Part shown: in pieces, positions 1,746-43,562 of the stretch
Position numbering within the stretch: the stretch's first letter is position 1
Layout of the letters: each line of letters starts with the position of its first letter
NCBI GenBank assembly: GCA_050952625.1
Contig: JBMNLH010000001.1
Location: forward strand, 928,001-992,000
Source: Bacillota bacterium
Lineage (GTDB): Bacteria > Bacillota > Ch66 > Ch109
Length of the DNA stretch: 64,000 bases
Direction: 5' to 3'
The notes under the pieces: model-generated
Told to the model about the DNA's origin: nothing
The model's database searches: none
What the model saw: the letters and a program-made list of their open reading frames with translations, nothing else
Program-made: the position numbers and the translations under genes

Positions 1746-3441
1746 ATGTTGATAGGGATTGATGTGGGAGGAACCTACACTGACGCAGCCCTTATCCAGA
1801 ATCGCCAAGTGTTACGCTGGGCTAAGACTCCAACTCGACCAGAATTGCTTTCGTCTTTATTAGAAGTTCTGGATCAGATTATGGAGGGTGTAGACCCATC
1901 GACTGTTAAACGAGTATCCCTTAGTACCACCCTGATTACGAATTTGATTGCTGAAGATAAAGTGGAGCCGGTAGCTTTGCTGGCTATTCCCGGGCCGGGG
2001 GTCAACCCGCATAGTTTTTCAGTTTTTGATAATGCCTATTTATTAAGTGGGGCAATTGATTATCGGGGTAGAGAAACAGCGAAACTTGTTCAGGCAGAAG
2101 TGGCAGAGGTTATTCGGAAGGTAGACCAAAAGGGATTTAACAAAGTCGCCGTTGTCGGCAAGTTCTCGGTCCGTAACAATCAACATGAGCAGGCAATAGC
2201 CAAGTATGTCGCTGATCATTACCCACATATCCAGGTTGAAATGGGACATCAAACAGCCGGTCAACTTAACTTTCCACGCCGAGCCGTCACCACCCAGTTA
2301 ACCGCGGCTACTCGACCGGCTTATCGGTGCTTTATTGACCAGATACGGGCAGCTCTTAAGGAACGTCGGATTGAGGCACCAGTCTACATTTTAAAGGCAG
2401 ATGGAGGCACCTTGCCTTTGGAAAAGGCAGTCGACGTCCCAGTAGAAACCATTTTTTCCGGACCGGCCGCTAGTACCATGGGGGTACTGGCACTGACACC
2501 GGCCGGTCAAACCTCTGTGGTTGTCGATATTGGGGGTACGACGACGGATTTGGCCTTGATCCTGTCCGGTAAACCGTTGCTGTCATCCAAAGGAGCTCGG
2601 GTTAAAGAGCATTTGACTCAGGTGCGAGCCTTTGCCGTGAAATCAGTCGCTTTGGGAGGAGACAGTGCTGTTCGGGTTAAGAACGGGTATTTAGAAGTAA
2701 GCCCGGAGCGAGTGGGGCCCGGCCTGCTGTTTGGGTGGATCAGTTCCAACGCCGACAGATGCCCTGCGGGTTTTGGGGTTGGCCGATATCGGCGAAGAGG
2801 CCTTAGCCCGGGCCGCGATTCGGGAGCTTTCGGCCAAGCTGTCTTCTGAGTTGGTCAGTTCGGAAGAGGACCCGGTTAAAGCTACGGCTAGGTTGGTCTT
2901 AAATATCGTAGTTGATCGAATGATTCGCGAAATTGAGGAGATGTTTTTGGCCTGGGAACAGGAACCAGCTTATCGAGTCTGGGAAATGATGCAAAAAGAA
3001 CGAGTTCGGCCACAAAACGTGGTAGGCGTGGGTGGATCAGCCTCTTCCCTGGTTCCGCTGGTAGCCGAGCGAATGGGTTGTGTGGGAATTATTCCAGAAC
3101 ACGCCCCGGTTGCCAATGCCCTAGGAGCGGCGGTGGCCCGGCCAACCCTAGGAATAACCTTGAGGGTTGATACTGAACAAGCGTTTTATTCAATCGCAGA
3201 AGACGGAACTCAGAAAAAATCAACCAAACTAAGTAAGTATCACCTTGAAGAAGCTCAGAATCTTGCCAAGCAGTTACTCAAGGAGCGGGCCGAACAGATG
3301 GGTCTAAGTGGCTACAGCCAGGAAGCAGAAGTGACGCATAGTGAATTGTTTAATATGATCCGGGGATGGAGCCGGGTTGGTCGACTGATTGATGTTGTCG
3401 TTCAGATACCAGCCGGGCTGATTCCGGAGTGGGTTGATTGA
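1746..3441 (+). pseudogene. Hydantoinase/oxoprolinase family protein with a frameshift near 2720 (real or sequencing error)
   Basis: GIDVGGTYTD and VVDIGGTTTD in ORF 1746-2849; GG..PTPTDAL and VANALGAA continue in the other frame (2731-3441); one extra base in GGGCCCGGCC. Confidence 0.85.
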
Positions 3442-4862
3442 GAGGAGGAAAGCCCATGCAACAGAGAATAAAACCCTGGAAACAACGACGCTGGGATGAC
3501 ATAGATAAAAAACACAGACGGACGGGATTAGTTTTTTTTCCGGCTTTTGACTGGGCAATTTCCGCTACTCACCCGGAGCGGGAAGAACGGCTTCTATATA
3601 CCAAGGACCAAATTTTTGAAGAGGGCTTAATGGATCTCCCTCAGATTATTGAATACAAGGCTGGAGTGGCTACGGAAAAAGACGTTGCCCGAGTTCATTT
3701 TTGCGTCCCTAATGTCCGAACTCAAATTACGGATGCGCACCTGATTTCCGTTGGAAGTGCCATGGTCCTGGCCGATGCCTTTATGCAAGGTGAGGTAACC
3801 AACTCTTTTGCCCTAGTGCGGCCCCCTGGTCATCATGCCATGCGGGTAGCCCATGGTAATCGTGGCTTCTGTAACATTAATAATGAAGCGATCATGATTG
3901 AGTATCTGCGCCGAAAGTATGGTTTACGCCGGGTAGCGATTGTCGATACGGATGTGCATCACGGCGATGGAACCCAGGAAATATTCTATCATGATCCAGA
4001 TGTCCTCTTTATTTCTTTTCATCAGGATGGCCGGACTCTTTACCCGGGGACCGGGTTTGTCCCGGAACTGGGCGGACCGGGAGCATATTGCTCAAACATT
4101 AACATTCCATTACCGCCGGGAACGACTGATGAGGGTATCCATTATGTTCTGGATAACTTAGTATTACCAATTTTAAATGATTTTGATCCAGAAATTGTGG
4201 TCAACTCCGCAGGTCAAGATAACCATTATACCGATCCTTTAGCTAATATGCAGTGGACCGCGGCTGGTTATGCCTTGCTGAACGAAAAATTACGCCCAGA
4301 TTTGGCGGTCCTTGAAGGAGGATATGCTATTGAAACCGCGCTTCCCTATGTTAATACTGGAATTATCTTGGCTATGGCCGGGTTGGATTATTCCTGGGTA
4401 CGGGAACCGCAACTGCAGCCGGGCAGCCTGCGCATGAGCAGTTCGGTTAAAGAACGGGTGGAGGGAGTCGTGGATCAACTGCAAAAGATCTGGGCCAACC
4501 GGGAGGAATTGGCGAAAAAGCGCAAAGAAGAGGTGGGTCCGTACTTCAAGGAACGAAAGAGGATTTATTACGATACCGATCAAATCGAGGAAAGTCAGGA
4601 TATTACGGTTAAAATGTGCGATCATTGTTCCGGTTACATTTTGCTTCATTCTCGAGCAGAACGAATGTGGAACAGCCAGGCGATTACCGGTGTCTCTATT
4701 CCGCTCTATGCCTGCTCAGCCTGTCAGCGGGAAGGCCGAGCAACATATCAGGAGGCTAAGGTAAAGGCGGATTACAAAACGGATGTAGTTTACCTTCAAG
4801 ATAAGGTCGCAGATGAGTTTATCCAATGGCATCCAACGCGCCAAGAAGAAAAACGATATTAA
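3438..4862 (+). CDS. Histone deacetylase family amidohydrolase
   Basis: RPPGHHA, GFCNINN, DTDVHHGDGTQ, SAGQD, LEGGY; C-terminal CxxC...CxxC. Confidence 0.93.
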   Translation: MRGGKPMQQRIKPWKQRRWDDIDKKHRRTGLVFFPAFDWAISATHPEREERLLYTKDQIFEEGLMDLPQIIEYKAGVATEKDVARVHFCVPNVRTQITDAHLISVGSAMVLADAFMQGEVTNSFALVRPPGHHAMRVAHGNRGFCNINNEAIMIEYLRRKYGLRRVAIVDTDVHHGDGTQEIFYHDPDVLFISFHQDGRTLYPGTGFVPELGGPGAYCSNINIPLPPGTTDEGIHYVLDNLVLPILNDFDPEIVVNSAGQDNHYTDPLANMQWTAAGYALLNEKLRPDLAVLEGGYAIETALPYVNTGIILAMAGLDYSWVREPQLQPGSLRMSSSVKERVEGVVDQLQKIWANREELAKKRKEEVGPYFKERKRIYYDTDQIEESQDITVKMCDHCSGYILLHSRAERMWNSQAITGVSIPLYACSACQREGRATYQEAKVKADYKTDVVYLQDKVADEFIQWHPTRQEEKRY

Positions 4863-31319: not shown

Positions 31320-31546
31320 GTGTTAATATATTATTGTATTGTCTAAAAGCAGGGTTTTAACAAATTAGATTTACCAAATAGATTCTCAATTTATCCATTA
31401 AAAGCTAGGTTAATCCGTTGCTAGATGGATATTCAGGCAACGGAATTTATTTATACTATGGATATGAAATGACAAATTATATTAATCACAAATTAATAGA
31501 TTGCTTGTTTAATAGAAATAAAAACGCAAATTAACATAGTAAGTCA

Positions 31547-31569
31547 TTAGTGATGCATAAAATTTAACC
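31547..31569 (+). repeat. Dispersed TAGTGATGCA-type repeat end
   Basis: CATTAGTGATGCATAAAATTTAA is the exact reverse complement of 40911-40933; a variant occurs at 42052-42070. Confidence 0.75.
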
Positions 31570-33874: not shown

Positions 33875-35245
33875 TTAACTGTTGTCAGTCTCAGGATTAT
33901 AGGGTTTAGTGCCGGTGTCACCGTTTTCGATAATTTTTGTACTTTGTGGTCTCTCGTCTTGTTGAACAAAATAATAAGCAGCAGCATTATTTGGTATAGA
34001 ATCAGTTTGGTTATCAGTTATAATCGTGGGTCTGTGCTTCCAAAGAGCAACTGGCGACCTAGAAGTAATAATAGGAGTATCCGAAGGTATAGTCTGGTCT
34101 TCCTCTTCTTGTTTAACGAGATCAGCTATACTATTTTCTATAATTTGGAGACGGGAGACTAGGTTAGCTAGCAAGTCATCGTATTTAGTTTGTATGTTCA
34201 GATCAGCCAAGTCGTTTTCAATTACCTGGAGACGGGAGACTAGGTTAGCTAGCAAGTCATCGTATTTAGTTTGTATATTCAGATCAGTCAAGTCGTTTTC
34301 AATAACCTGGAGGCGAGAGGTTAGGCTAACTAAGTCTTCGGCTTTAGCTCTTTTATCAAGCTCGCTAAATACTAATTCAATAGATTGAAAGTGGTAAATC
34401 ATTTCTTCTAACGGTTTAATAAGGCTGGCTTTAATTTCCAGGGTTTGAAGGCGAGAGATTATATCATCAAGAAGACCTTCATCGTTTTTTCTGTTCATTT
34501 CCGTTAGTTCTTGTTCTAAAGCTTGGAGACGAGATGTCAAATTTTTTAGTAATTCGTTTATTTTCCTGTTTTCTAATTCCTGCTCTATGTTCCAGCTTCG
34601 ATTTTTAACATATTCGGCTTGTTCGCCAGTTAATACGCCTTGTATTTGATCTAGATTAATTGTATCGGGTAGTAAGTAAATTTTAGTATCTTCTGTTTGG
34701 TAAACTAGGTTTTCATTATTTAAAAATTGTTCAAGTTCGGGAATGTCTAGAGGTGGATCACTTGTATCAGGGATTTGATTTGTAATCTCTTCTTGGTCTG
34801 ATTTCGATTTTTTCATATGTTTTTTGCCTCCGTGTTGATTTTTCTTGTTATTATGAAGCTTAGGATTTATCGGTTTTAAACGGTTAGCTTTTGCCTGGGA
34901 GGAGATTTTCCGGTTTTTTACCTTAGACGAGTTTGCAATCCGGGTATCAATTACTTTTGCTTTCGATTCAAGTTCTATCTCGTTAAGCGGTTTAAAAACA
35001 ATAGGTTCAAATTCTACATTTAGAAGTGGTTGATTTTCGATATTTTGGTCAATTAAAGATGAGGGTTTTTCGATAGCAATTATTTGAGGAAGTGCCAAAT
35101 TCCCTACAGCCTTGAACTCTTTAATTATTGATTTATGGACCTTCTCCTCAGTTGGTTTTGATCCAGGTTTTGAGCTTTTAGATTTTTTTTTCCCAATGGG
35201 AAGTCGATGCTGGGCAGATAGTAACGGTTTAACGTTAGGGTCCAT
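33875..35245 (-). CDS. Coiled-coil hypothetical protein with 27-aa SRLQ repeats
   Basis: Long ORF, RBS AAAGGAG, Lys-rich N-terminus, internal repeats. Confidence 0.75.
   Translation of the reverse strand: MDPNVKPLLSAQHRLPIGKKKSKSSKPGSKPTEEKVHKSIIKEFKAVGNLALPQIIAIEKPSSLIDQNIENQPLLNVEFEPIVFKPLNEIELESKAKVIDTRIANSSKVKNRKISSQAKANRLKPINPKLHNNKKNQHGGKKHMKKSKSDQEEITNQIPDTSDPPLDIPELEQFLNNENLVYQTEDTKIYLLPDTINLDQIQGVLTGEQAEYVKNRSWNIEQELENRKINELLKNLTSRLQALEQELTEMNRKNDEGLLDDIISRLQTLEIKASLIKPLEEMIYHFQSIELVFSELDKRAKAEDLVSLTSRLQVIENDLTDLNIQTKYDDLLANLVSRLQVIENDLADLNIQTKYDDLLANLVSRLQIIENSIADLVKQEEEDQTIPSDTPIITSRSPVALWKHRPTIITDNQTDSIPNNAAAYYFVQQDERPQSTKIIENGDTGTKPYNPETDNS
34147..34320. repeat. 81-bp intragenic tandem repeat
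   Basis: GGAGACGGGAGACTAGG at 34147 and 34228, variant at 34309. Confidence 0.9.
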
Positions 35246-35475: not shown

Positions 35476-35580
35476 AGTGAACTCGTTCAGCTTCGCTGAA
35501 CATCGAGGCGTCAGGTGGAGACTCTACTCCACCTGACGTTTGAACAAGAAAACCCCCACTTATAGAAGTAGGGGTCTTTT
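35476..35580. mobile_element. Palindromic MITE-like element with IS200/IS605-type end hairpin, copy 1
   Basis: GTTCAGC/GCTGAAC, CGTCAGGTGGAG/CTCCACCTGACG and ACCCC.ACTT/AAGT.GGGGT hairpins; other copies at 52146 and 57755. Confidence 0.7.
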
Positions 35581-35632
35581 AAACTCAGATAAATTCTCGA
35601 GGACCTGCTTCATCGCAAAGCAAACTCTTTAA

Positions 35633-36631
35633 TTATTCTCGACCATAAGCTTTAGGCAGCCGGCCACTGGTCACTGATTCGGCCCGTAATTGACGACCAA
35701 CGATCCGTTCGACCATTGCTCCCAGATCAAGGAGTTTATCAACGTCTATTCCGGTTTCGATGCCCATTCCATCCAGCATTACCACCAGGTCTTCGGTGCA
35801 GACGAGGCCGGTTCGGCTAGGATCGGAGTAATAGTACTTACCGGTTCCAGATACCGGAACTCCATCGATAAAGTTAGCCGGTTGGCCACCAATACCACCC
35901 AAAGTAGCGTCGAAACAGGCAATCCCTGCCTGCATTGCGGCTAAGACATTAGCCAAGCCCCAGCCTCGGGTAACGTGAAAGTGGGCAACGTGCCTTTCCG
36001 GATGCGGGTCACGGTCCAGGACCTTGGCGAAGTATTCATAAATCTTATCAGGACTGGCCTGACCATCATGGTCAGCGTGGCAGACATCGTCAACTCCCAT
36101 CTTTAACAGCCGGTCGGTAAAGTCTACTGCCCAGTCCATCGGGACCGGACCAGCAATTGGGCAGCCCCAGATGGTACTAACTGTAACTGAGAATTTAATC
36201 CCGGCATCGCGCGAAAGTTGCAACCACTTTTCGATATTGGCCCAGTGTTCGGTAATCGGCCTTCCCGCATTAACCAGGTTGTGAGCCTCACTCGTCGAGA
36301 TAGTCACTGAAATCCGGTCCGGGCCATATCCGGCTTCCTTATCTTTAATTGCGTCCATTACTGCTCGTTCAGTCATGGTTACGACGGTGTATTCCATTCC
36401 GGGAACCCGTTTGATTCGCTTCATCAGTTCATGGGCATCCTTGAATTGAGGCATCCGTTTGGGATTGCCAAAGTTTGATACCTCAATTTTTTTAAAACCG
36501 GCATCAACCAAGGCATCCAGAACATACATCTTGGCATCAGTGGGAATAAACTTCTCTTCGTGTTGGAAACCATCGCGGGCGGTGATGTCACAAACATGGA
36601 CAAACTTGGGCAGATTGGCAAATGGGTTCAT
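35633..36631 (-). CDS. Hydroxymethylglutaryl-CoA lyase-like (DRE-TIM metallolyase)
   Basis: RDGFQHE, HFHVTRG, GGIGG, TEDLV. Confidence 0.88.
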   Translation of the reverse strand: MNPFANLPKFVHVCDITARDGFQHEEKFIPTDAKMYVLDALVDAGFKKIEVSNFGNPKRMPQFKDAHELMKRIKRVPGMEYTVVTMTERAVMDAIKDKEAGYGPDRISVTISTSEAHNLVNAGRPITEHWANIEKWLQLSRDAGIKFSVTVSTIWGCPIAGPVPMDWAVDFTDRLLKMGVDDVCHADHDGQASPDKIYEYFAKVLDRDPHPERHVAHFHVTRGWGLANVLAAMQAGIACFDATLGGIGGQPANFIDGVPVSGTGKYYYSDPSRTGLVCTEDLVVMLDGMGIETGIDVDKLLDLGAMVERIVGRQLRAESVTSGRLPKAYGRE

Positions 36632-36815
36632 GTAATTAAACTCGCTCCTTTCAAGCCTCTCGTGTAAAACTGATTAGGTTTGCGTTTTCCGGCTTATTGC
36701 TTACTGATTCTACAAATAAAGCACTTTTTCCTGCTAGCGGATAGGAAGAGTTGTCAAAGAAGATTGAAAAATCAAGCGGGTAAAACACAGGTATCAATTA
36801 GTTGTTAATTGCAAA

Positions 36816-36839
36816 TAACCCGCCTATACCGGCGGGTTA
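36816..36839. terminator. Hairpin downstream of the sigK 3' half (probable sigK terminator)
   Basis: TAACCCGCC-N6-GGCGGGTTA. Confidence 0.65.
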
Positions 36840-36908
36840 AATTATGATTTAGCAGTAAGGGCAATTCAGTTTTATAATATAATGGACCGAATATTATCAA
36901 ACGAATAA

Positions 36909-37202
36909 TTATGGTTTGTATTTATTGGATGGGGAATCCATTGACAGTTCGCGCATCAGTTTTTGAATGGCTCGCTTCTCAATCCGACTAACATAACTCC
37001 TGGAGATTCCTAACATCCTAGCTATTTCTCGCTGGGTTTTTCGAAAACTGTTAAACAATCCAAAACGTAAGACTAGGACGTTTCTTTCGCGTGGGGATAG
37101 TCGTTTGACTCTTTCACGTAATCGGTCTTCCTCAAAACGTCCCTCTACTGTCTCTTGAACTATCTCCGGTTCAGTGCCTAGAACATCTAGCAGGGTGATT
37201 TC
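36909..37202 (-). CDS. sigK: sigK 3' half (spoIIIC equivalent; regions 3-4), no start codon, missed by the ORF track
   Basis: Hand translation: EITLLDVLGTEPE...LSPRERNVLVLRFGL...KTQREIARMLGISRSYVSRIEKRAIQKL; 97 codons then TAA. Confidence 0.95.
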   Translation of the reverse strand, partial: EITLLDVLGTEPEIVQETVEGRFEEDRLRERVKRLSPRERNVLVLRFGLFNSFRKTQREIARMLGISRSYVSRIEKRAIQKLMRELSMDSPSNKYKP

Positions 37203-37231
37203 GTTAACCTCTCCATGTTATCTATTGTATT
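37180..37231 (-). other. attR-like site (P-GA-B'), core GA at 37202-37201
   Basis: Minus strand ATAGATAACATGGAGAGGTTAAC-GA-AATCACCCTGCTA. Confidence 0.88.
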
Positions 37232-37247
37232 AACCCGAGACAAAAGA

Positions 37248-37510
37248 CTACTTTTTATAAATGTCTCCGCGTGGCCCGATGACCTCAATAATTATTAATT
37301 GATCTTCAATTATAAGGTCATAAATAATCCGTATGTCGCCAATGCGACCCCTGTACTTCTGATTAAAGCCCCGTAACTGCTTAATATTTGTCCGCTGAGG
37401 GGATCAACGGAAATGGCTTCAATTGCAGCCGCAATACGTTTTTGGGTAGCCCTATCAACACGTTTAAGATAGTTGCGAGGCTGAGCTAACAGCTTGACCT
37501 CATAGGTCAA
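37248..37510 (-). pseudogene. RelE/ParE toxin, frameshifted
   Basis: MTYEVKL...RIAAAIEAI..DP, then in a shifted frame IKQLRG...YRGRIGDIRIIYD...IGPRGDIYK. Confidence 0.85.
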
Positions 37511-37877
37511 GTTCTCGTTTGAGCTCATCCCAGCTAACGCCACCTTTCCGACGTTGTTCCTTACTCAAGGCTGCTATTTCATTTTCTGGCCAATCTAAGT
37601 AAATAGTATCTTGGCAGGAAGGGCAGATGAATTCATCATGCCAGGTTTTAGTTTCATCCGTGTTTGGATTATCCAGTAGATCAGCTAACACTAGGGGTGT
37701 GCTGCATGTGGTACAAAACGGGTCAATGTAGAAGGGGCTGCTCCCAGGCCGTGGTATGACCGCACTTTCTGGTTGTACCCTTTCTACTAGTTTTTCAAGA
37801 TACTTTTTGGCTCTCTCTATGTTTTGCTCCGGAAGCCTAGCAACTAGGCGGTAAAGCTCTTCCTTGGGTAAGCTCAT
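37500..37877 (-). CDS. Probable antitoxin with CxxC...CxxC insertion
   Basis: KEELYRLVARLPE N-terminus, GVSWDELKREL C-terminus, overlaps the toxin start. Confidence 0.7.
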   Translation of the reverse strand: MSLPKEELYRLVARLPEQNIERAKKYLEKLVERVQPESAVIPRPGSSPFYIDPFCTTCSTPLVLADLLDNPNTDETKTWHDEFICPSCQDTIYLDWPENEIAALSKEQRRKGGVSWDELKRELDL

Positions 37878-38026
37878 TAAAAATCATCCCTTCTGCTTTT
37901 CCCATTTTTTCTACCTTTCCCACAGTACTTTAGGTAGTTTTACCCCCTTCAACAATTAATCCAGTCTCTGGAGAGTAGCGTACATAATTATATTACCAAT
38001 TAGTTACTATAACTGTAAATTATAAT

Positions 38027-39598
38027 TCATATTAATAGATAAACATTAAGCGTAAAGTTATCAAGCCTTGCGCTTTTTTCTTTATAATACACGGCTTTAT
38101 CTACGATAGTTTTAAGTAGTGTATTTTTCTTTACTACATCGTCGGTGGCTTGGTAAGCGTCCAGGACATGCCGAATGGTCGGGATGATCTGCTGGTGGGT
38201 GCGCTCCCGTTCCTCAATTTCATTTATTTCATCCTGAACCTGTTGCAGAGACTTGCTCGCGGCCTCGATCCTCTCAGTAACAATCTTATTGCGTTCAAGG
38301 TAGGTGGGTATATCATAGACACCCTGTTCCAGAAGGTCCTGGAGGCGTGACTTTTGCTTTTGCAGTTCCTCTAGCTGCCTGGTCAAGTTCTCGATAACCG
38401 AATTAGGTATAAGCGGTTCAGCCGTGGCCGCTATCTCCCGGGCCAGTTGCTCCTGGTTCAGTTCTAAGTTTGCTAACTCTTCCTCCAAGGTTTGCAACAA
38501 CCTTTTTTCAACAAAACTGAAAAGGGACGATTTGTTGTCACATCCTGCATGGATGCATTTACACATATTAGATTTGTGTCCGGACTTTTGTTTATTGGAT
38601 TGTAAAACCATTCGGCGTCCGCATTTGCCACAAACGATCAGACCGGCTAAAGGATTTTTAGGTTTCGTCTTTGTGCGCACAACAGTATTTTTTTTAAGGT
38701 TGTTTTGTGCAGCATAAAAAATATCCTTCTCGATTAAAGGTTCATGCTTCCCTTCTACATCAATCCACTGCTCCCTGGGACGAGCATAACCTATTTTACG
38801 GGATCGATCCCGATATTTCTTTTTCCACTGAATTCGTCCGATATAAACCTCATTGCTAAGTATAAAACGAACAACAGAAGGTTCCCAAACACCTCCTCTA
38901 ACCGGGCTTTTAACCTTCATTTCATTTAATCGATTAGCAATTCTAGTACTGCCAATAGGGTTGCCATCGTTACCATTAACGTACCAGTTATAAATTAGAC
39001 GAACAATTTCAGCATCTTTATTGGGGATCAGGACCTTATCAGGCCCTCGATCGTAGCCAAAAGGGGGACGGGTCCCGATATACTTCCCGTCCTTAACCGC
39101 CATTACCCGACCCCGTTGAAGACGCTTGTTGATAATCTTCAGTTCCCGTCTAGCCATGAAAGCCTCGAATTCGCTCCATTCTTCATCGAGCTCATCATCC
39201 AAGTCATACACCTTCCGAGGGGTAATGATGAGGGTAGAGGAGGCTTTAAACGCCGCCAGAATGGTCCCCTGATCAATCATGTCGCCCCGTCCAAGCCGGT
39301 CCAGATCCATGCATAGGACCGCATCATATTCACCCGCTTCAACTTCATGGAGGAGGCGTTGCATTTCTGGACGGTCTGATATATGTTCGCCACTAACAAT
39401 TTCTTCGAAAATGGATACTACGTTAAGACGGTTGCGCTGGGCCAGTTCGGTAAGAGCTTTGCGATGCTTAGATAAAGTATCACCTTCACCCCGAGATTCA
39501 GCTTCAAAATCTGCCCGGGATTTACGAAGATACATGGCTACTTTATTAAGATCACGAGGAAAATCGGCTGGCAAGATAAACACCCCTGACGATAACAT
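38027..39598 (-). CDS. spoIVCA: Large serine recombinase, SpoIVCA-like (likely start TTG 39574)
   Basis: YLRKSR catalytic Ser, DRLGR, PFGY, Y.G recombinase domain, GLIVCGKCG zinc ribbon, coiled coil; intact. Confidence 0.92.
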   Translation of the reverse strand: MLSSGVFILPADFPRDLNKVAMYLRKSRADFEAESRGEGDTLSKHRKALTELAQRNRLNVVSIFEEIVSGEHISDRPEMQRLLHEVEAGEYDAVLCMDLDRLGRGDMIDQGTILAAFKASSTLIITPRKVYDLDDELDEEWSEFEAFMARRELKIINKRLQRGRVMAVKDGKYIGTRPPFGYDRGPDKVLIPNKDAEIVRLIYNWYVNGNDGNPIGSTRIANRLNEMKVKSPVRGGVWEPSVVRFILSNEVYIGRIQWKKKYRDRSRKIGYARPREQWIDVEGKHEPLIEKDIFYAAQNNLKKNTVVRTKTKPKNPLAGLIVCGKCGRRMVLQSNKQKSGHKSNMCKCIHAGCDNKSSLFSFVEKRLLQTLEEELANLELNQEQLAREIAATAEPLIPNSVIENLTRQLEELQKQKSRLQDLLEQGVYDIPTYLERNKIVTERIEAASKSLQQVQDEINEIEERERTHQQIIPTIRHVLDAYQATDDVVKKNTLLKTIVDKAVYYKEKSARLDNFTLNVYLLI

Positions 39599-39610
39599 CT
39601 TTATCTATTG

Positions 39611-39640
39611 TTATTCGTCGAGGAGAGGGGAATTCCTGCA
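39611..39640 (-). promoter_or_regulatory. SigmaH-type promoter of the recombinase
   Basis: GCAGGAATT-N14-GAATAA. Confidence 0.65.
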
Positions 39641-39641
39641 G

Positions 39642-39836
39642 TTACTTCCTTAACTCCAAGCGTAGCTGAATCAGTACCAACCGCAATTTCCCCATAAGTC
39701 TAATCAATTCCTCCCATAAGCGAAACTGGGTCAACGGGGAGCCAGTAAATGTTTGCTCGTTTGATAACCACCTGGCCAGCCCGAGTGTTCTTTCGACACG
39801 TGGATCGCTAGGTAAAACATCAGTCCTTTTCATCAT
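39642..39836 (-). pseudogene. ImmA/IrrE-like metalloprotease N-terminal remnant
   Basis: LPSDPR...ARWL, then shifted frame NIYWLPVDPVSL; position between integrase and repressor remnant. Confidence 0.45.
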
Positions 39837-40027
39837 AAATTCCTTGAATCCCTAGTAAATAGATTGGAAGTAGAATGTTAGGTTAATTACTAAACTTTAA
39901 TCGATCTCAAATTAGAAGTGCCTATATAAATATAAAAACCTGTCTTTTTATTATCCACAGGTTTTCAGTCGTATATCTATTTAATTTATCTAATCCTGTT
40001 AATTTCTGAATGTTTAATGACATTTTC

Positions 40028-40135
40028 TCACGCTGCCTTATTCACAAGAGCTAGGGCCTTTATCAACTTTTTTCGGTCCCATAATTCAATGTTAGAGTTT
40101 TTGGCTTCTTTCTGAGCCTGTTCAGATAAGCGAGT
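40028..40135 (-). pseudogene. C-terminal remnant of an Mrr-type restriction endonuclease
   Basis: LSEQAQKEAKNSNIELWDRKKLIKAL*. Confidence 0.55.
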
Positions 40136-40180
40136 CTTAATGTTTTTTTCGTTTTCTTGTCAGTCAAGAGAAATCGTGTA

Positions 40181-40372
40181 TTACTTTAACCGCTTAAGAA
40201 TAACGACTTCCTCTTCCTGGGTGGATAAGCGTTTGTCAATTCTTTTGATATCTTCCCAAACGTAACGGAGTTCATTTTTTATTGACGTTACATCTGCTTG
40301 GAGTAACTTTTGGCCTTCGGCCAATGTCTGGAGTTGTTGTAGTACAAGCTCCTGGAATTTCCCGTTATCCAT
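40181..40372 (-). CDS. Small coiled-coil phage-like protein (63 aa)
   Basis: AAAGGAG RBS, MDNGKFQELVLQQL... Confidence 0.6.
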   Translation of the reverse strand: MDNGKFQELVLQQLQTLAEGQKLLQADVTSIKNELRYVWEDIKRIDKRLSTQEEEVVILKRLK

Positions 40373-40409
40373 AGCAATCTCCTTTCTGGTGCCCGATACG
40401 GATCTCAAT

Positions 40410-40470
40410 TTAACGCGGCCAAGGAGATAATCGGGCGATACATTAAAAAAGTCAGCAATAACTAAACATA
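40410..40470 (-). pseudogene. Deletion remnant of an XRE-family repressor
   Basis: RBS plus ATG-TTT-AGT joined out of frame to IADFFNVSPDYLLGR. Confidence 0.6.
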
Positions 40471-40646
40471 GCATCACCTTCCAGTTTATTATACTCACAT
40501 AATGTAAGTAAAACAACGCTCCTCACGTAAGTGAAAATAATTTGAATATGGGGCCCGACTGCTTTCGATCTGTGAGTATAATAACAAATAAAGTTGCTTA
40601 CTAAAAATATCCATGATTGGAGGTAATCACTTACAAAACACACGGT

Positions 40647-40674
40647 TTGTCCTTGACCGACAACTGCATAGATC
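40647..40674 (+). promoter_or_regulatory. Mother-cell-type -10 (CATAGAT) with SpoIIID-like box
   Basis: CATAGATC at 40667; AAGGACAA (WWRRACAR) on the minus strand at 40647-40654; -35 weak. Confidence 0.4.
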
Positions 40675-40693
40675 AGTAGTGGGTGATGCCTTC

Positions 40694-40870
40694 ATGAAAC
40701 CGGAGATTAAGCTGGTCGGCGAAAAGAAAATAGAACGGACAACAATCCGCGTATTCCGTCCAGAGCTAAGTTTTGAAGAGCGAGAGTTTCGAATGAAGTT
40801 ACTGCACACTGCCGTTGCGGACTGCTATCGTTCGTCGACGAATCGGGTAGAGGGTAGCGGCACTAGTTGA
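40694..40870 (+). CDS. 58-aa protein, candidate recombination directionality factor
   Basis: GGGTGA RBS; TTIRVFRPELSFEEREFRMK; small intact gene among decayed ones. Confidence 0.55.
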   Translation: MKPEIKLVGEKKIERTTIRVFRPELSFEEREFRMKLLHTAVADCYRSSTNRVEGSGTS

Positions 40871-40910
40871 GGAGTACAAGATAGGTTGTACTAAGATAAG
40901 AATTTACGAA

Positions 40911-40945
40911 TTAAATTTTATGCATCACTAATGTAGCCTGATTAT
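40911..40945. repeat. Repeat end plus left copy of 12-bp inverted repeat (TAGCCTGATTAT, 40934-40945)
   Basis: Reverse complement ATAATCAGGCTA at 42069-42080. Confidence 0.75.
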
Positions 40946-41145
40946 CTTCTTCAGTACCGACACTTGGCCGGCTCCGAAACTATCAAAAAACCAATTACTC
41001 CCCCTAGAATCAAACTAATAATTGTGTTCTCAATCACGTTTAAACACCCTCTCTTTTTGATTTCACCTTATAAGCCCATCCGGAATAAACTGTAATTAAA
41101 CGCCAGGGTTTTTTCTCCAATTGATTTCCACATTTATCCTTCGAT

Positions 41146-41182
41146 TTGGACAGGCACTAGTTTACGATAACAACCATATTAT
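41146..41182 (+). promoter_or_regulatory. sigK promoter (sigmaK/sigmaE type) with SpoIIID box
   Basis: TTGGACAG (WWRRACAR) at 41146, AC at 41156, 17-nt spacer, CATATTAT at 41175. Confidence 0.75.
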
Positions 41183-41216
41183 GTAGAGCAAGCTCCGCTT
41201 CAAAGGGGGATTAAAT

Positions 41217-41647
41217 GTGTACCTGGATCTTACGACACCCTGGTTATCCTTTTGTTTTCCTGGATTGCTCCTTTTAGTTGGATATATCACTAATCAAACT
41301 TTCCCGCATCCACTGTCCGAAGATCAAGAAACATCATGCCTTCGACGTTTTCGCAATGGCGATGAGGAGGCTAGAAATTTACTTATTGAACATAATCTTC
41401 GGCTCGTCGCGCATATTTTAAAAAAATTTGATGGAACTGGCGAAGATACCGATGATCTTATTTCTATTGGAACCATTGGATTGATTAAAGCAATCAACAC
41501 CTTCGATCCAGATAAAGGTGCTAAACTAGCCACTTATGCTGCCCGTTGCATCGAAAACGAGATCCTAATGCATTTACGAGCATCACGGAAAAATAAAGGT
41601 GAGGTATCCCTATACGATCCTATTGGCACGGATAAAGAAGGTAATGA
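41217..41647 (+). CDS. sigK: sigK 5' half (spoIVCB equivalent) with pro-sequence; reads through to a stop at 41726 in this orientation
   Basis: [67 protein letters not shown]. Confidence 0.96.
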
Positions 41648-41676
41648 GTTAAGCTTGCTAAGTTATCTATCAATTT
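41625..41676 (+). other. attL-like site (B-GA-P'), core GA at 41646-41647
   Basis: GATAAAGAAGGTAAT-GA-GTTAAGCTTGCTAAGTTATCTAT. Confidence 0.88.
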
Positions 41677-41755
41677 ACTGTGGTCAAAAAGTCCCAGGCC
41701 AGCGGGCACAGGAGCGTTTTTCATAGTAAGGCCAGTGCAATTTGTAAGTATTAAC

Positions 41756-42045
41756 TAATTATAGCTTAACTTATTAAATTTAACTGTTTTTAATTTATTG
41801 CTAATATATCCAATAATACCTTTCCCCTGATTTGTCACACGGAATGAAAAAAGTCTCAAGCCTCCAGGTGTTATACGGACGTGCCAAGAAAACAATAGTT
41901 TTTCTCCGTCGATTCCGGTAAACGTATGCTCGTCTTTAAAACGAATTATTGTTTCTGGGCTTTCTGGAGTAAACTTACTTGAAAATTGACTAGGGTCAAA
42001 TTTTCCAGGTTGCCATCTAGTAAATTATTTGTTTAACTCATCTAA
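41756..42045 (-). pseudogene. Fragment of a hypothetical cargo protein beyond attL
   Basis: LDELNK*FTRWQPGKF...TPESPET...TF...FSWHVRITPG...IGYI; internal stop, no start. Confidence 0.5.
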
Positions 42046-42051
42046 TTAAAA

Positions 42052-42080
42052 AGTTTAATGCAACACTAATAATCAGGCTA
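42052..42080. repeat. Repeat end plus right copy of 12-bp inverted repeat
   Basis: TTTAATGCAACACTA followed by ATAATCAGGCTA. Confidence 0.75.
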
Positions 42081-42162
42081 ACGAAAGATTCTTAAACTCA
42101 ACTGGAATCTATGGTTGACTTGAGGCAATGTTTGGATGATGTTATAATGATAAACGAATTGC

Positions 42163-42693
42163 ATGGAGGGTATCGTTTTGAAGAAGAAAATCATCCAGTT
42201 GCTGAGACCGAAGCTTTTTGTCAGATCAATAACGGATGTTACTCCGGACATCCTTGATTCTTTTCAGGTTAAAGGGATTATCATAGACCTGGATAATACC
42301 CTTACTCCATGGCAAAGCGAGTTTTTAGCCCCAGATAATATTCGTTGGCTCAATACTATTAAGAGCCACGGTTTTCAAGTCTGTCTAGTTAGTAATAATA
42401 AGGGCGAAAGAATAAAGAAGATTGCCAGCATCTTGGATATTCCTTTTGTGGCCAAGGCCTCTAAACCCCGGCGACGGGCTTTCTTAAAGGGAATGAAAGC
42501 CATTGGGACTAAGCCTCAAGAAACAGCAGTAATTGGCGATCAGGTTTTTACTGATGTTTTAGGCGGAAACAGACTTGGGCTATGCACGATACTCGTCGAC
42601 CCTTTAAGTTCATATGAATTTGTTGGGACCCGTTTAATGCGGATTCCCGAGCGAGCGGTGCTAAACCTAATTCGGAGGCCGAATAAGTTATGA
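42163..42693 (+). CDS. yqeG: YqeG family HAD IIIA phosphatase
   Basis: DLDNTL, VSNN, KP, IGDQVFTDVLGGNR. Confidence 0.93.
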   Translation: MEGIVLKKKIIQLLRPKLFVRSITDVTPDILDSFQVKGIIIDLDNTLTPWQSEFLAPDNIRWLNTIKSHGFQVCLVSNNKGERIKKIASILDIPFVAKASKPRRRAFLKGMKAIGTKPQETAVIGDQVFTDVLGGNRLGLCTILVDPLSSYEFVGTRLMRIPERAVLNLIRRPNKL

Positions 42694-43562
42694 GCAAAAG
42701 GAAAGAAATAACTGGTGTGACTGAAATATTTGGGGTGATGGGCTATCCGGTAGCCCATTCGCTATCTCCGGCCATACAAAATAAGGCATTTGATTATTAT
42801 GAATTAGATAAGATTTATTTGGCTTTTGCTGTACCCCCCAACTGCCTGACTCAAGCCTTGAATGGTTTAAGGGCTTTAGGCGTAATCGGGGTTAATGTCA
42901 CCTTGCCCTATAAAGAGGCTGTAGCCAGACAGGTCGATCTCCTTTCTCCAGAGGCCCAATTGATTGGGGCGGTAAATGTCTTGCGTTTTGACCAGGATCG
43001 TTTGGTTGGTCATAATACCGACGGTACCGGATTTCTGCAGTCACTTGAACAAGATGCTGGCTTTACGCCTGCCGGAAAAAAGGTTCTGGTTCTAGGGGCT
43101 GGCGGAGCAGCGAGAGCAGTTACTTTGACCCTGGCTCGATTTGGGGCGGCGCATATAAGCATAGCCAATCGAACTCGAAAACGGGCTACGGAACTGGCGA
43201 CAGAAGTTGAGGCAAGAACTGGCCTAAAAGCAGTGGGGCTAAGCTTAGAACCAAGTGAACTGAAACCCTGGGTTCCCGAGGCGGATTTGGTGATTCAAGC
43301 TACCTCGGTTGGTTTATACCCAAAGGGTGAATCGCCAAGTTGGTTTAATCCGGATTGGCTATCGCCAACTGCGTTAGTCTGCGATCTCATTTATCGGCCT
43401 CGACCCTCTGAGTTTTTAAAGAGGGCTGCTTTAAGAGGATGTCGTACCTTAGACGGGTTAGGCATGCTCTTATATCAAGGGGCGCAATCTTTCACCTGGT
43501 GGACGGGTTTGGAAGCACCGGTCGACGTAATGCGGCAGTCATTGTTAAAACAGCTTGGCTGA
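42690..43562 (+). CDS. aroE: Shikimate dehydrogenase
   Basis: HSLSP, NVTLPYK, NTDG.G, GAGGAARA, GLGMLLYQG. Confidence 0.96.
   Translation: MSKRKEITGVTEIFGVMGYPVAHSLSPAIQNKAFDYYELDKIYLAFAVPPNCLTQALNGLRALGVIGVNVTLPYKEAVARQVDLLSPEAQLIGAVNVLRFDQDRLVGHNTDGTGFLQSLEQDAGFTPAGKKVLVLGAGGAARAVTLTLARFGAAHISIANRTRKRATELATEVEARTGLKAVGLSLEPSELKPWVPEADLVIQATSVGLYPKGESPSWFNPDWLSPTALVCDLIYRPRPSEFLKRAALRGCRTLDGLGMLLYQGAQSFTWWTGLEAPVDVMRQSLLKQLG

Follow-up and report, generated by a model that had tools for sequence, protein, structure and literature searches.

A sigK gene split into opposed halves around a large serine recombinase: a skin-type element that probably works by inversion rather than excision

The late sporulation sigma factor gene sigK of a Bacillota bacterium (assembly GCA_050952625.1) lies in two divergent halves on opposite strands, with a recombinase gene between them, in a 64,000-nucleotide stretch of contig JBMNLH010000001.1 (positions 928,001 to 992,000 of the forward strand), which was analysed as a whole and is called the window here. 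It is proposed that this locus is a sigK-intervening, skin-type element which probably works by inversion rather than excision, the large serine recombinase (LSR) encoded between the halves flipping the DNA that separates them. The features that carry the argument are as follows, in window positions; L054 and L055 are loci with related elements, L026 is the sigK locus of a same-genus genome, and all three are taken up below.

36909-37202, minus strand: sigK 3' half, 97 codons plus stop, with sigma-70 region 4 (TIGR02846, 109.5 bits)
37201-37202, minus strand: GA crossover dinucleotide of the left, attR-type site, reading TC on the plus strand; the GA position matches L054 and L055
37203-37225, plus strand: element-side half-site (P arm) of attR, GTTAACCTCTCCATGTTATCTAT, matching 41648-41670 in direct orientation at 18 of 23 positions; motif kept in L054/L055
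38027-39598, minus strand: LSR of 523 aa with Resolvase, Recombinase and Zn_ribbon_recom domains
40694-40870, plus strand: candidate recombination directionality factor of 58 aa, with homologues beside related LSRs and predicted LSR binding
40934-41216, plus strand: native sigK upstream region (promoter), colinear with L026 1170-1451
41217-41645, plus strand: sigK 5' half, 143 codons, with pro-sequence and sigma-70 region 2 (TIGR02846, 223.3 bits)
41646-41647, plus strand: GA crossover dinucleotide of the right, attL-type site, placed by junction comparison with the related elements
41648-41670, plus strand: element-side half-site (P' arm) of attL, GTTAAGCTTGCTAAGTTATCTAT, assigned by its match to the left arm

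The plus-strand open reading frame (ORF) at 41217-41726 is SigK-like up to ...DKEGNE (codon 143, base 41645) and continues into unrelated sequence, while the minus-strand translation of 37205-36909 reads NEITLLDVLG...ISRSYVSRIEKRA...KYKP and then stops. Against the SigK equivalog TIGR02846 (NCBIfam, 227 positions) the 5' half covers model positions 12-140 (E 2.9e-66) and the 3' half positions 140-226 (E 1.8e-31), and both halves score higher on the SigK than on the SigE models. Joined at the GA common to both (41646-41647 on the plus strand, 37202-37201 on the minus strand), the pieces form one frame of 143 + 97 codons, or 240 aa, and neither half holds a stop or a frameshift. An earlier reading made from the sequence alone (the sequence-only reading) had given the same coordinates, frame and total length, all of which agree with the translations and the ORF list. 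No start codon in frame with the 3' half lies between the upstream stop and the junction, and this half therefore has no role as a separate protein. The locus thus resembles a skin element in interrupting the sigK coding sequence and encoding a SpoIVCA-like recombinase; it does not have the co-oriented halves that leave by circle excision, its halves being on opposite strands and its core dinucleotides inverted. No second sigK was found by profile search with TIGR02846 in the assembled contigs of the genome (2.9 Mb, 9 contigs, estimated 95.9% complete, with about 4% not assembled). The only other strong match, C1:673881-674510, is SigE: it passes the cut-offs of two SigE equivalogs, at 404.9 and 403.1 bits, and falls short of that of the SigK model, at 256.7 bits; the sequence-only reading had named another intact sigK as something that would overturn its interpretation.

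The same reading had also raised misassembly, that is, halves which are co-oriented in reality. A 5.5-kb stretch of the locus is wholly or partly present in 20 of the 24 public runs listed, from 17 studies, with labels of anaerobic digester, bioreactor and biogas metagenomes. The junctions were checked over 35500-43500 in the Logan contigs of four of these runs; X1 and X3 may be the source sample, and X9 (2020) and X15 (2016) are not flagged as source. In X1 a single contig of 12,348 nt spans the whole stretch with both junctions; in X3 the left junction is spanned by a contig over 35500-38078 and the right one by a contig over 38052-42076; X15 bridges both (36872-37263 and 41534-41954) and X9 the right one (41340-42018). 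The window orientation is the only one that appears in these contigs. An assembly artefact is suggested by the apparent metagenomic origin of the genome (all runs holding the stretch are metagenomes) and by repeated ends of an insertion sequence (IS) nearby, and we hold it to be scarcely credible, the least probable of the alternatives considered here: the junctions are bridged by a separate assembly pipeline, the left one in three runs and the right one in four, and the IS-end repeats are 23-25 nt long and in direct orientation.

Read along the plus strand, a sigK half at each junction gives way to a 23-nt arm, and the two arms are alike, with identity at 18 of 23 positions. The halves run opposite ways, and therefore these direct-repeat arms are the two arms of one imperfect palindrome, as would be expected if the attP of the LSR has been divided between attL and attR. 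At the crossover the only bases common to both junctions are GA, in inverted orientation (41646-41647 plus; 37202-37201 minus). By their letters the junctions have the imperfect inverted-repeat arms and the 2-bp crossover of LSR attachment sites, with cleavage at the GA putative. Serine integrase sites with an asymmetric core invert the DNA between them when they lie head to head. The arrangement is not that of a small serine invertase switch of the Hin/Gin type, in which a recombinase of about 190 aa works on two identical inverted repeats; the enzyme here has 523 aa and LSR domains, and the hybrid attL and attR share the element-side arm only.

The recombinase is full length and matches PF00239 (67.2 bits), PF07508 (78.2 bits) and PF13408 (26.1 bits) as well as the integrase family phrog_95 (378 bits). 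It has both the catalytic N-terminal domain and the Recombinase/zinc-ribbon C-terminal extension of about 300 aa or more that define an LSR, and the catalytic serine S27 of the RKSR motif and the zinc-ribbon cysteines C323, C326, C348 and C353 are invariant in an alignment of 11 LSR sequences, which bears out the sequence-only reading in calling the large serine recombinase between the halves intact. To our knowledge, recombination of attL with attR requires a recombination directionality factor in all LSRs studied. The 58-aa protein, the product of the 40694 ORF that the sequence-only reading had singled out, is a candidate for this factor by position and by modelling. Its homologues (53% and 47% identity) are divergent from, and adjoin, 66-67% identical LSRs in L039/L054 and L055; a protein database supplied a fourth homologue with 71% identity. 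It has no Pfam, NCBIfam or PHROG family match; a homologous-protein search with it returned two proteins, one of them the query ORF; and in a protein atlas all matches stayed below 0.9 (best 0.87), the nearest named cluster being TnpW on 35% of its members with a score of 0.75, which is a lead only. When LSR residues 175-523 (11-row alignment) and the 58-aa protein (4-row alignment) were submitted to complex prediction, the median score of three runs was 0.75, compared with 0.00 for the best of three controls; among solved complexes 58 of 80 attain that mark, and among mismatched pairs 2 of 110. Contacts agreed to at least 77% across runs and the predicted local distance difference test of the 58-aa partner was at least 69. 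The predicted interface comprises the C-terminal twelve residues of the LSR (512-523) and scattered residues in 362-382 and 473-498. This model supports binding of the 58-aa protein to the LSR; complexes of LSRs with their factors have been solved (PMC11722253, as far as its accessible text describes), and likeness to them may add to the passing of the mark.

We propose the following course. The attL and attR of the element's own LSR lie head to head at the two junctions, and during sporulation, presumably in the mother cell, recombination between attL and attR by the LSR and the 58-aa factor would turn 37203-41645 (about 4.4 kb) round. The flip would set the 5' half with its native 283-bp upstream region before the 3' half on the minus strand, giving an intact sigK of 240 codons, and would leave a palindromic attP at the far end, with no DNA released. 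The geometry, the intact LSR, the inverted attachment sites and the lack of a second sigK in the assembly support the earlier proposal of an inversion that carries the promoter along and loses no DNA. Since the rejoined form was not observed, inversion during sporulation is something we infer.

Elements related to this one indicate which site the enzyme uses. A search of genome contigs for loci related to the LSR recovered two. LSRs 66-67% identical to that of the window sit in sigK in L039/L054 and L055, and the split codon is the same. L039 and L054 both hold one 67% identical LSR and an identical small ORF, and are probably one organism reached twice, which with L055 makes two organisms. 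In these loci the sigK halves are co-oriented around a 2.3-kb element, with the arm motif and GA position of the window at the junctions. At L057 a 47% identical LSR abuts a sigK 5' half ending at residue 143, and the 3' half lies 43 kb off on the same strand. The occurrence of related LSRs in sigK at the same codon means that this LSR family targets the site, and judged by these comparisons the window copy would differ from its relatives only in the relative orientation of the two sites. As known counterparts, these mini sigK elements share with the window the split codon, arm motif, GA core and the pair of LSR and small ORF; unlike the window they are of the excision type, with co-oriented halves only 2.3 kb apart and without IS ends and extra ORFs.

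How the opposed orientation arose can be read from an intact relative and from the remaining features of the insert, which are listed here.

37310-37877, minus strand: two small overlapping ORFs of 77 and 125 aa, with weak matches only (RelE-like phrog_1213, E 0.0012)
40181-40516, minus strand: ORF of 111 aa with a weak match to phage transcriptional regulators (phrog_8, E 2e-5)
40911-40933, plus strand: last 23 nt of a resident IS (right-end type), the body of the IS being absent (IS-end match 23/23)
40934-40942, plus strand: one copy of a 9-bp target-site duplication, TAGCCTGAT
41671-42045, no strand assigned: remaining cassette DNA right of attL, without an ORF of its own of at least 50 aa and absent from the intact relative
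42046-42071, plus strand: last ~25 nt of that IS (left-end type), again lacking its body (IS-end match 24/25)
42072-42080, plus strand: second, inverted copy of the 9-bp target duplication, ATCAGGCTA, the complement of TAGCCTGAT

Genome G001, of the same genus, has at locus L026 an intact sigK of 239 aa, flanked as in the window by an HMGL-like gene and, at its other end, by yqeG and aroE. By blastn, L026 1-1178 corresponds to window 43248-42071 (minus, 95%), 1170-1879 to 40934-41644 (plus, 91%) and 1871-3456 to 37214-35627 (minus, 95%). It follows from these three blocks that the upstream region and 5' half of sigK, about 700 bp of native DNA, have been turned round where they stand, and the only extra DNA relative to G001 is 37215-40933 and 41645-42070. 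The inverted segment 40934-41644 has 91% identity to the same-genus genome, as against 95% in both flanks, and synonymous divergence (dS) is 0.30 in the 5' half and 0.12 in the 3' half; chance, greater variability of the intergenic part or a separate history of the segment could account for this.

The extra DNA is bounded by IS termini. The IS-end 17-mer TTTWATGCAWCACTAAT occurs 19 times in the genome with at most one mismatch, compared with no occurrence of a reversed-pattern control, and seven pairs of end motifs about 1.6 kb apart mark at least seven full IS copies with transposase-like ORFs (among them C1:1115322-1116922, C1:1123542-1125143, C3:121450-127566, C5:17220-18826 and C5:112436-114039), with 9-bp target duplications readable at several. 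A solo IS end at window 31546-31562 (minus) is identical over 23-24 nt to the end at 40911-40933. The cassette in the window gave no blastn match to the IS body and no tblastx match in 39500-42200, and no transposase domain was found in the cassette ORFs scanned with Pfam and NCBIfam. A whole IS split by the inversion was considered and rejected, the match being confined to the terminal 23-25 nt. With IS termini, a target duplication of the length made by the IS and no enclosed transposase, the insert is an IS-bounded passenger cassette. When the segment between the attachment sites is flipped back on paper, one cassette of 4.15 kb results, which lies 283 bp upstream of an intact sigK, has its IS termini inverted and its 9-bp duplication direct, and contains the LSR, the small ORFs and an intact attP. 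A two-step origin is likely the simplest history on this comparison: transposition in trans would have brought the cassette with its integrase-attP unit to its place 283 bp upstream of sigK, and the LSR would then have recombined attP with the attB inside sigK on the same molecule, giving an inversion and not an integration. The same final map would result if a normal integration had come first and abutted IS ends had then given rise to a secondary inversion of 40934-42071; this course is ranked lower, since abutted IS ends without an IS body have no obvious source. One contig of X9 (depth 9.3) joins 42068, GTG and 39979, the strand of the joint not being given. This was tried as an empty site and rejected, as 42046-42070 is the IS terminus ending ..CACTA(G/A)TG; it looks like an IS end abutting 39979 in another strain, which would be an IS insertion polymorphism inside the element.

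The sequence-only reading had asked how the halves are oriented in related genomes, and this was addressed with the SigK profile. The survey covered 401 genomes of the same phylum, 265 of them with a match over the cut-off, and took in the best 150 matches, with 566 more beyond these. Searched again were 33 genomes that had no match over the cut-off, a best E of about 1e-73 to 1e-81 and at least two matches (34 matches fall outside those listed), and split cases from a first search of 41 genomes were added to the count; genomes with a single match or a weaker best E, such as G002, G152, G187, G247, G254, G296, G332, G344, G382 and G399, were left out. Among the matches listed, sigK is split on a single contig in 22 genomes, with the halves on opposite strands in two, the window genome and G353, and co-oriented in the other 20 (G003, G018, G025, G030, G043, G089, G102, G120, G165, G193, G201, G206, G242, G252, G258, G278, G304, G335, G356 and G390). 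Sixteen of the 33 genomes searched again stand outside the 22, with halves on different contigs, one half only or an unclear pattern. Two further observations belong to the survey. Genome G028 (6.8 Mb) has an intact sigK and, within the 90 kb of C1:1542779-1632479, six or more truncated matches that resemble sigK and cover model positions of about 60-227. At G018 C2:11469-12138 the sigK pieces (positions 6-132 and 137-226) are on the same strand only 17 nt apart, which suggests a frameshift or a very small interruption, not an element.

G353 belongs to a family other than that of the window genome. Its sigK is split at ..ARCIE / NEILMY.., and the 5' half ending ..ARCIE is succeeded by an LSR of 594 aa with all three domains, a TAXI-TRAP transporter cluster of three genes and, on the opposite strand, the 3' half; the element-side arms match as an inverted repeat at 20 of 22 positions. 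In G401, of the same genus as G353, an intact sigK lies directly between a penicillin-binding-protein gene and yqeG, and compared with it, the 3' half of G353 has been turned round at its site, between inserts of 5.9 kb and 375 bp. The layout is the mirror image of that in the window, and the different LSR and different split site point to a second, independent case. The TAXI-TRAP cluster (L065 7013-10744) lies inside the invertible segment and is absent at this position in G401; it would change its orientation to the surroundings with each flip.

Several results bear on whether the split gene is kept in use. Four of four sporulation genes tested scored above their cut-offs (Spo0A 414 bits, SpoIIID 139, SpoIVA 800 and DpaA 360). 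In comparison with the intact gene of G001, the ratio of nonsynonymous to synonymous substitution rates (dN/dS) comes to 0.066 in the 5' half, from 24.5 synonymous and 6.5 nonsynonymous differences, and to 0.085 in the 3' half, from 7 and 2, respectively; these values include the time before the split. In the divergent strain of X15, where the left junction is bridged, the 3' half differs at four positions, three of them synonymous and the fourth a stop two codons early, which produces the ...NKY end also found in G001. The second case supplies the strongest argument. G402, a sister species in the genus of G353, is colinear with G353 through the 5' half and the LSR into the transporter genes at 76-87% nucleotide identity, and the two 5' halves are identical at 71 of 71 aa with 27 synonymous differences (dS about 1.0, dN/dS 0.006). 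Such identity at this dS means that a split sigK of the G353/G402 type has been kept under strong purifying selection across speciation.

Some findings weigh against an inversion at work in sporulating cells. The search for minority molecules of the rejoined form, which the sequence-only reading had proposed for reads, could be carried through on assembled contigs, which drop rare variants, so that its outcome is no evidence of absence: in the Logan contigs of the four runs there was no strand-changing joint at 37202 or 41647, no rejoined sigK and no reconstituted attP molecule. Loose ends at 41648 (three contigs in X3, one in X1) continue as intact sigK of other organisms, to which they are assigned because their letters differ from the window 3' half. 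When metagenomes were scanned with the intact SigK of the same-genus genome, 367 relatives came up and 80 loci were retained; with a best identity of 79%, none of these was a contig of this species, whichever the orientation, and the scan may omit records close to the genome of the window. The LSR carries G327E (window 38619) in two of the four runs, X9 and X15, at a column that is invariant in the 11 sequences and beside a zinc cysteine, which could mean relaxed constraint on the enzyme in these strains; that of X9 also carries T406N (window 38382). In the second case, the 69-aa small ORF of G353 has no detectable similarity to the 58-aa factor (hhalign Prob 0.1, E 0.54), the 3' half of G402 was not found in its assembly (an 87% complete genome), and so the selection argument drawn from this pair rests on a split shown to be inverted in G353 only.

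Some of these findings would suit a dead end, in which an accidental inversion between attP and attB broke sigK for good and the pieces have not yet decayed in a lineage that no longer completes sporulation. The unseen rejoined form in the contigs and the metagenome scan, the G327E substitution and the continuous habitat that digesters offer, where sporulation might be dispensable, all fit this account; it is unlikely all the same, given that all four sporulation genes tested are intact above cut-off, that both halves are intact with three of four strain changes in the 3' half synonymous and the fourth trimming two terminal residues as in the intact relative, that samples taken between 2016 and 2025, and strains with 1-3% divergence in the flanking DNA, show the arrangement, and that in the parallel case the 5' half is unchanged in all 71 residues between two species at dS of about 1. 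Somewhat less probable again is a heritable on/off switch, with vegetative flipping at low frequency producing subpopulations able and unable to finish sporulation and the LSR alone flipping the segment back. Inversion retains both sites on the chromosome and is reversible in principle, unlike excision, and LSRs alone perform the attP with attB reaction, the C. difficile enzyme having inverted plasmid DNA between opposed attB and attP sites in E. coli (PMC5025042, in the text available from it); against such a switch stand the single orientation in the contigs of all four runs and the mother-cell factor control of the known sigK elements described there.

A further route would go through the IS ends. 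A transposase acting on them could re-invert 40934-42071, restore co-oriented halves around one 4.15-kb element and so prepare a circle excision, and full IS copies with transposase ORFs are present in the genome. This demands a precise transposase inversion in every sporulating cell, for which we know of no programme, and the LSR sites alone allow repair in one step, so that it is very improbable. The claim of the sequence-only reading that sigK can be rebuilt only by flipping is in this respect slightly too strong: one-step inversion fits, and the two-step route is geometrically possible though unlikely. Inversion by the element's LSR during sporulation stays the reading that we prefer, and the candidate factor may set its direction.

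Among the remaining parts of the cassette, the pair of small ORFs at 37310-37877, beside attR, may be an addiction module; a 292-nt stretch within it (37576-37867) has a 73% identical copy at C4:295328-295619. Outside the element, a 456-aa ORF at window 33875-35245 (minus) is built of repeats of about 27 residues (…LVSRLQVIENDLxDLNIQTKYDDLLAN…) and looks like a repetitive coiled-coil protein.

Taken together, the two inverted cases suggest a class of unlosable sigK-capturing elements, in which an integrase-attP unit lands beside sigK, splits it by inversion and is reverse-inverted in each sporulating mother cell, and which arose at least twice with unrelated integrases and different split sites; we give this generalization an even chance. 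Developmental rebuilding of sigK by excision is a textbook example of programmed DNA rearrangement in bacteria. If the proposal is true, an element that does not excise would be immune to the curing that excision-type skins risk, the switch would be reversible in principle, and a selfish element would have found a route to become impossible to lose while its host stays fertile. Serine integrases and directionality factors would then serve naturally as chromosomal toggle switches in differentiation, as they do in synthetic biology, and with compact parts, namely two sites of about 50 bp, one integrase and one 58-aa factor. The locus also provides a worked example of origin, with an IS-borne integrase-attP unit delivered next to its target, and the host transporter genes on the invertible segment of G353 suggest that the flip could be linked with the expression of genes other than sigK.

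Full-text searches of literature outside subscription journals found no natural case in which inversion restores sigK or another sporulation gene, in line with the sequence-only reading, which knew of no described inversion-activated sigK; to judge by the literature found, natural reconstitution of sigK by inversion has not been described before. A survey of 15 skin elements does not mention inversion or opposite orientation in the text passages available from it (10.1101/2022.02.25.481979).

The nearest known systems share some of these traits. The skin element of Bacillus subtilis (SpoIVCA, also CisA) likewise interrupts sigK, encodes its own LSR and lets the gene be restored through site-specific recombination at short sites; in the parts of the accounts available (PMC11249958, PMC5025042) it is a prophage-like element of 42-48 kb between co-oriented halves, released as a circle, whereas the window has 4.4 kb between opposed halves, head-to-head sites and another split site. 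With the sites head to head, nothing can be excised. The skinCd element of Clostridioides difficile resembles the proposed system in pairing an LSR (CD1231) with a small direction-setting factor (CD1234), and on a plasmid engineered with attB and attP in opposed orientation CD1231 inverted the DNA between them in E. coli (PMC5025042, accessible passages). The natural skinCd element excises, inversion belonging to the engineered substrate, whereas in the window opposed sites are the natural chromosomal state and the candidate factor has no detected family. In the accessible text of PMC11249958, the restoration of nif genes in heterocysts of Calothrix sp. NIES-4101 is like the proposed flip in that inversion takes part in restoring a developmental gene in cells that have differentiated terminally, the title of the preprint giving seven excisions and two inversions; it differs in concerning a cyanobacterium, nif genes and other recombinases, and neither sporulation nor sigK. 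The gin element in gerE of Bacillus cereus ATCC 10987 is, like that of the window, a minimal non-prophage intervening element in a sporulation gene, and is described, in the part of the source available (PMC5595907), as a sporulation-specific gene-intervening element rearrangement, with no mention of inversion there.

The insert when flipped back, finally, has the form of a mobile insertion cassette. In such cassettes the terminal repeats of an IS surround passenger genes, and the insert likewise lies between two IS termini, with a 9-bp target duplication and without a transposase. In the window the passenger differs in being a complete site-specific recombination unit, which would then have rearranged its new neighbourhood.

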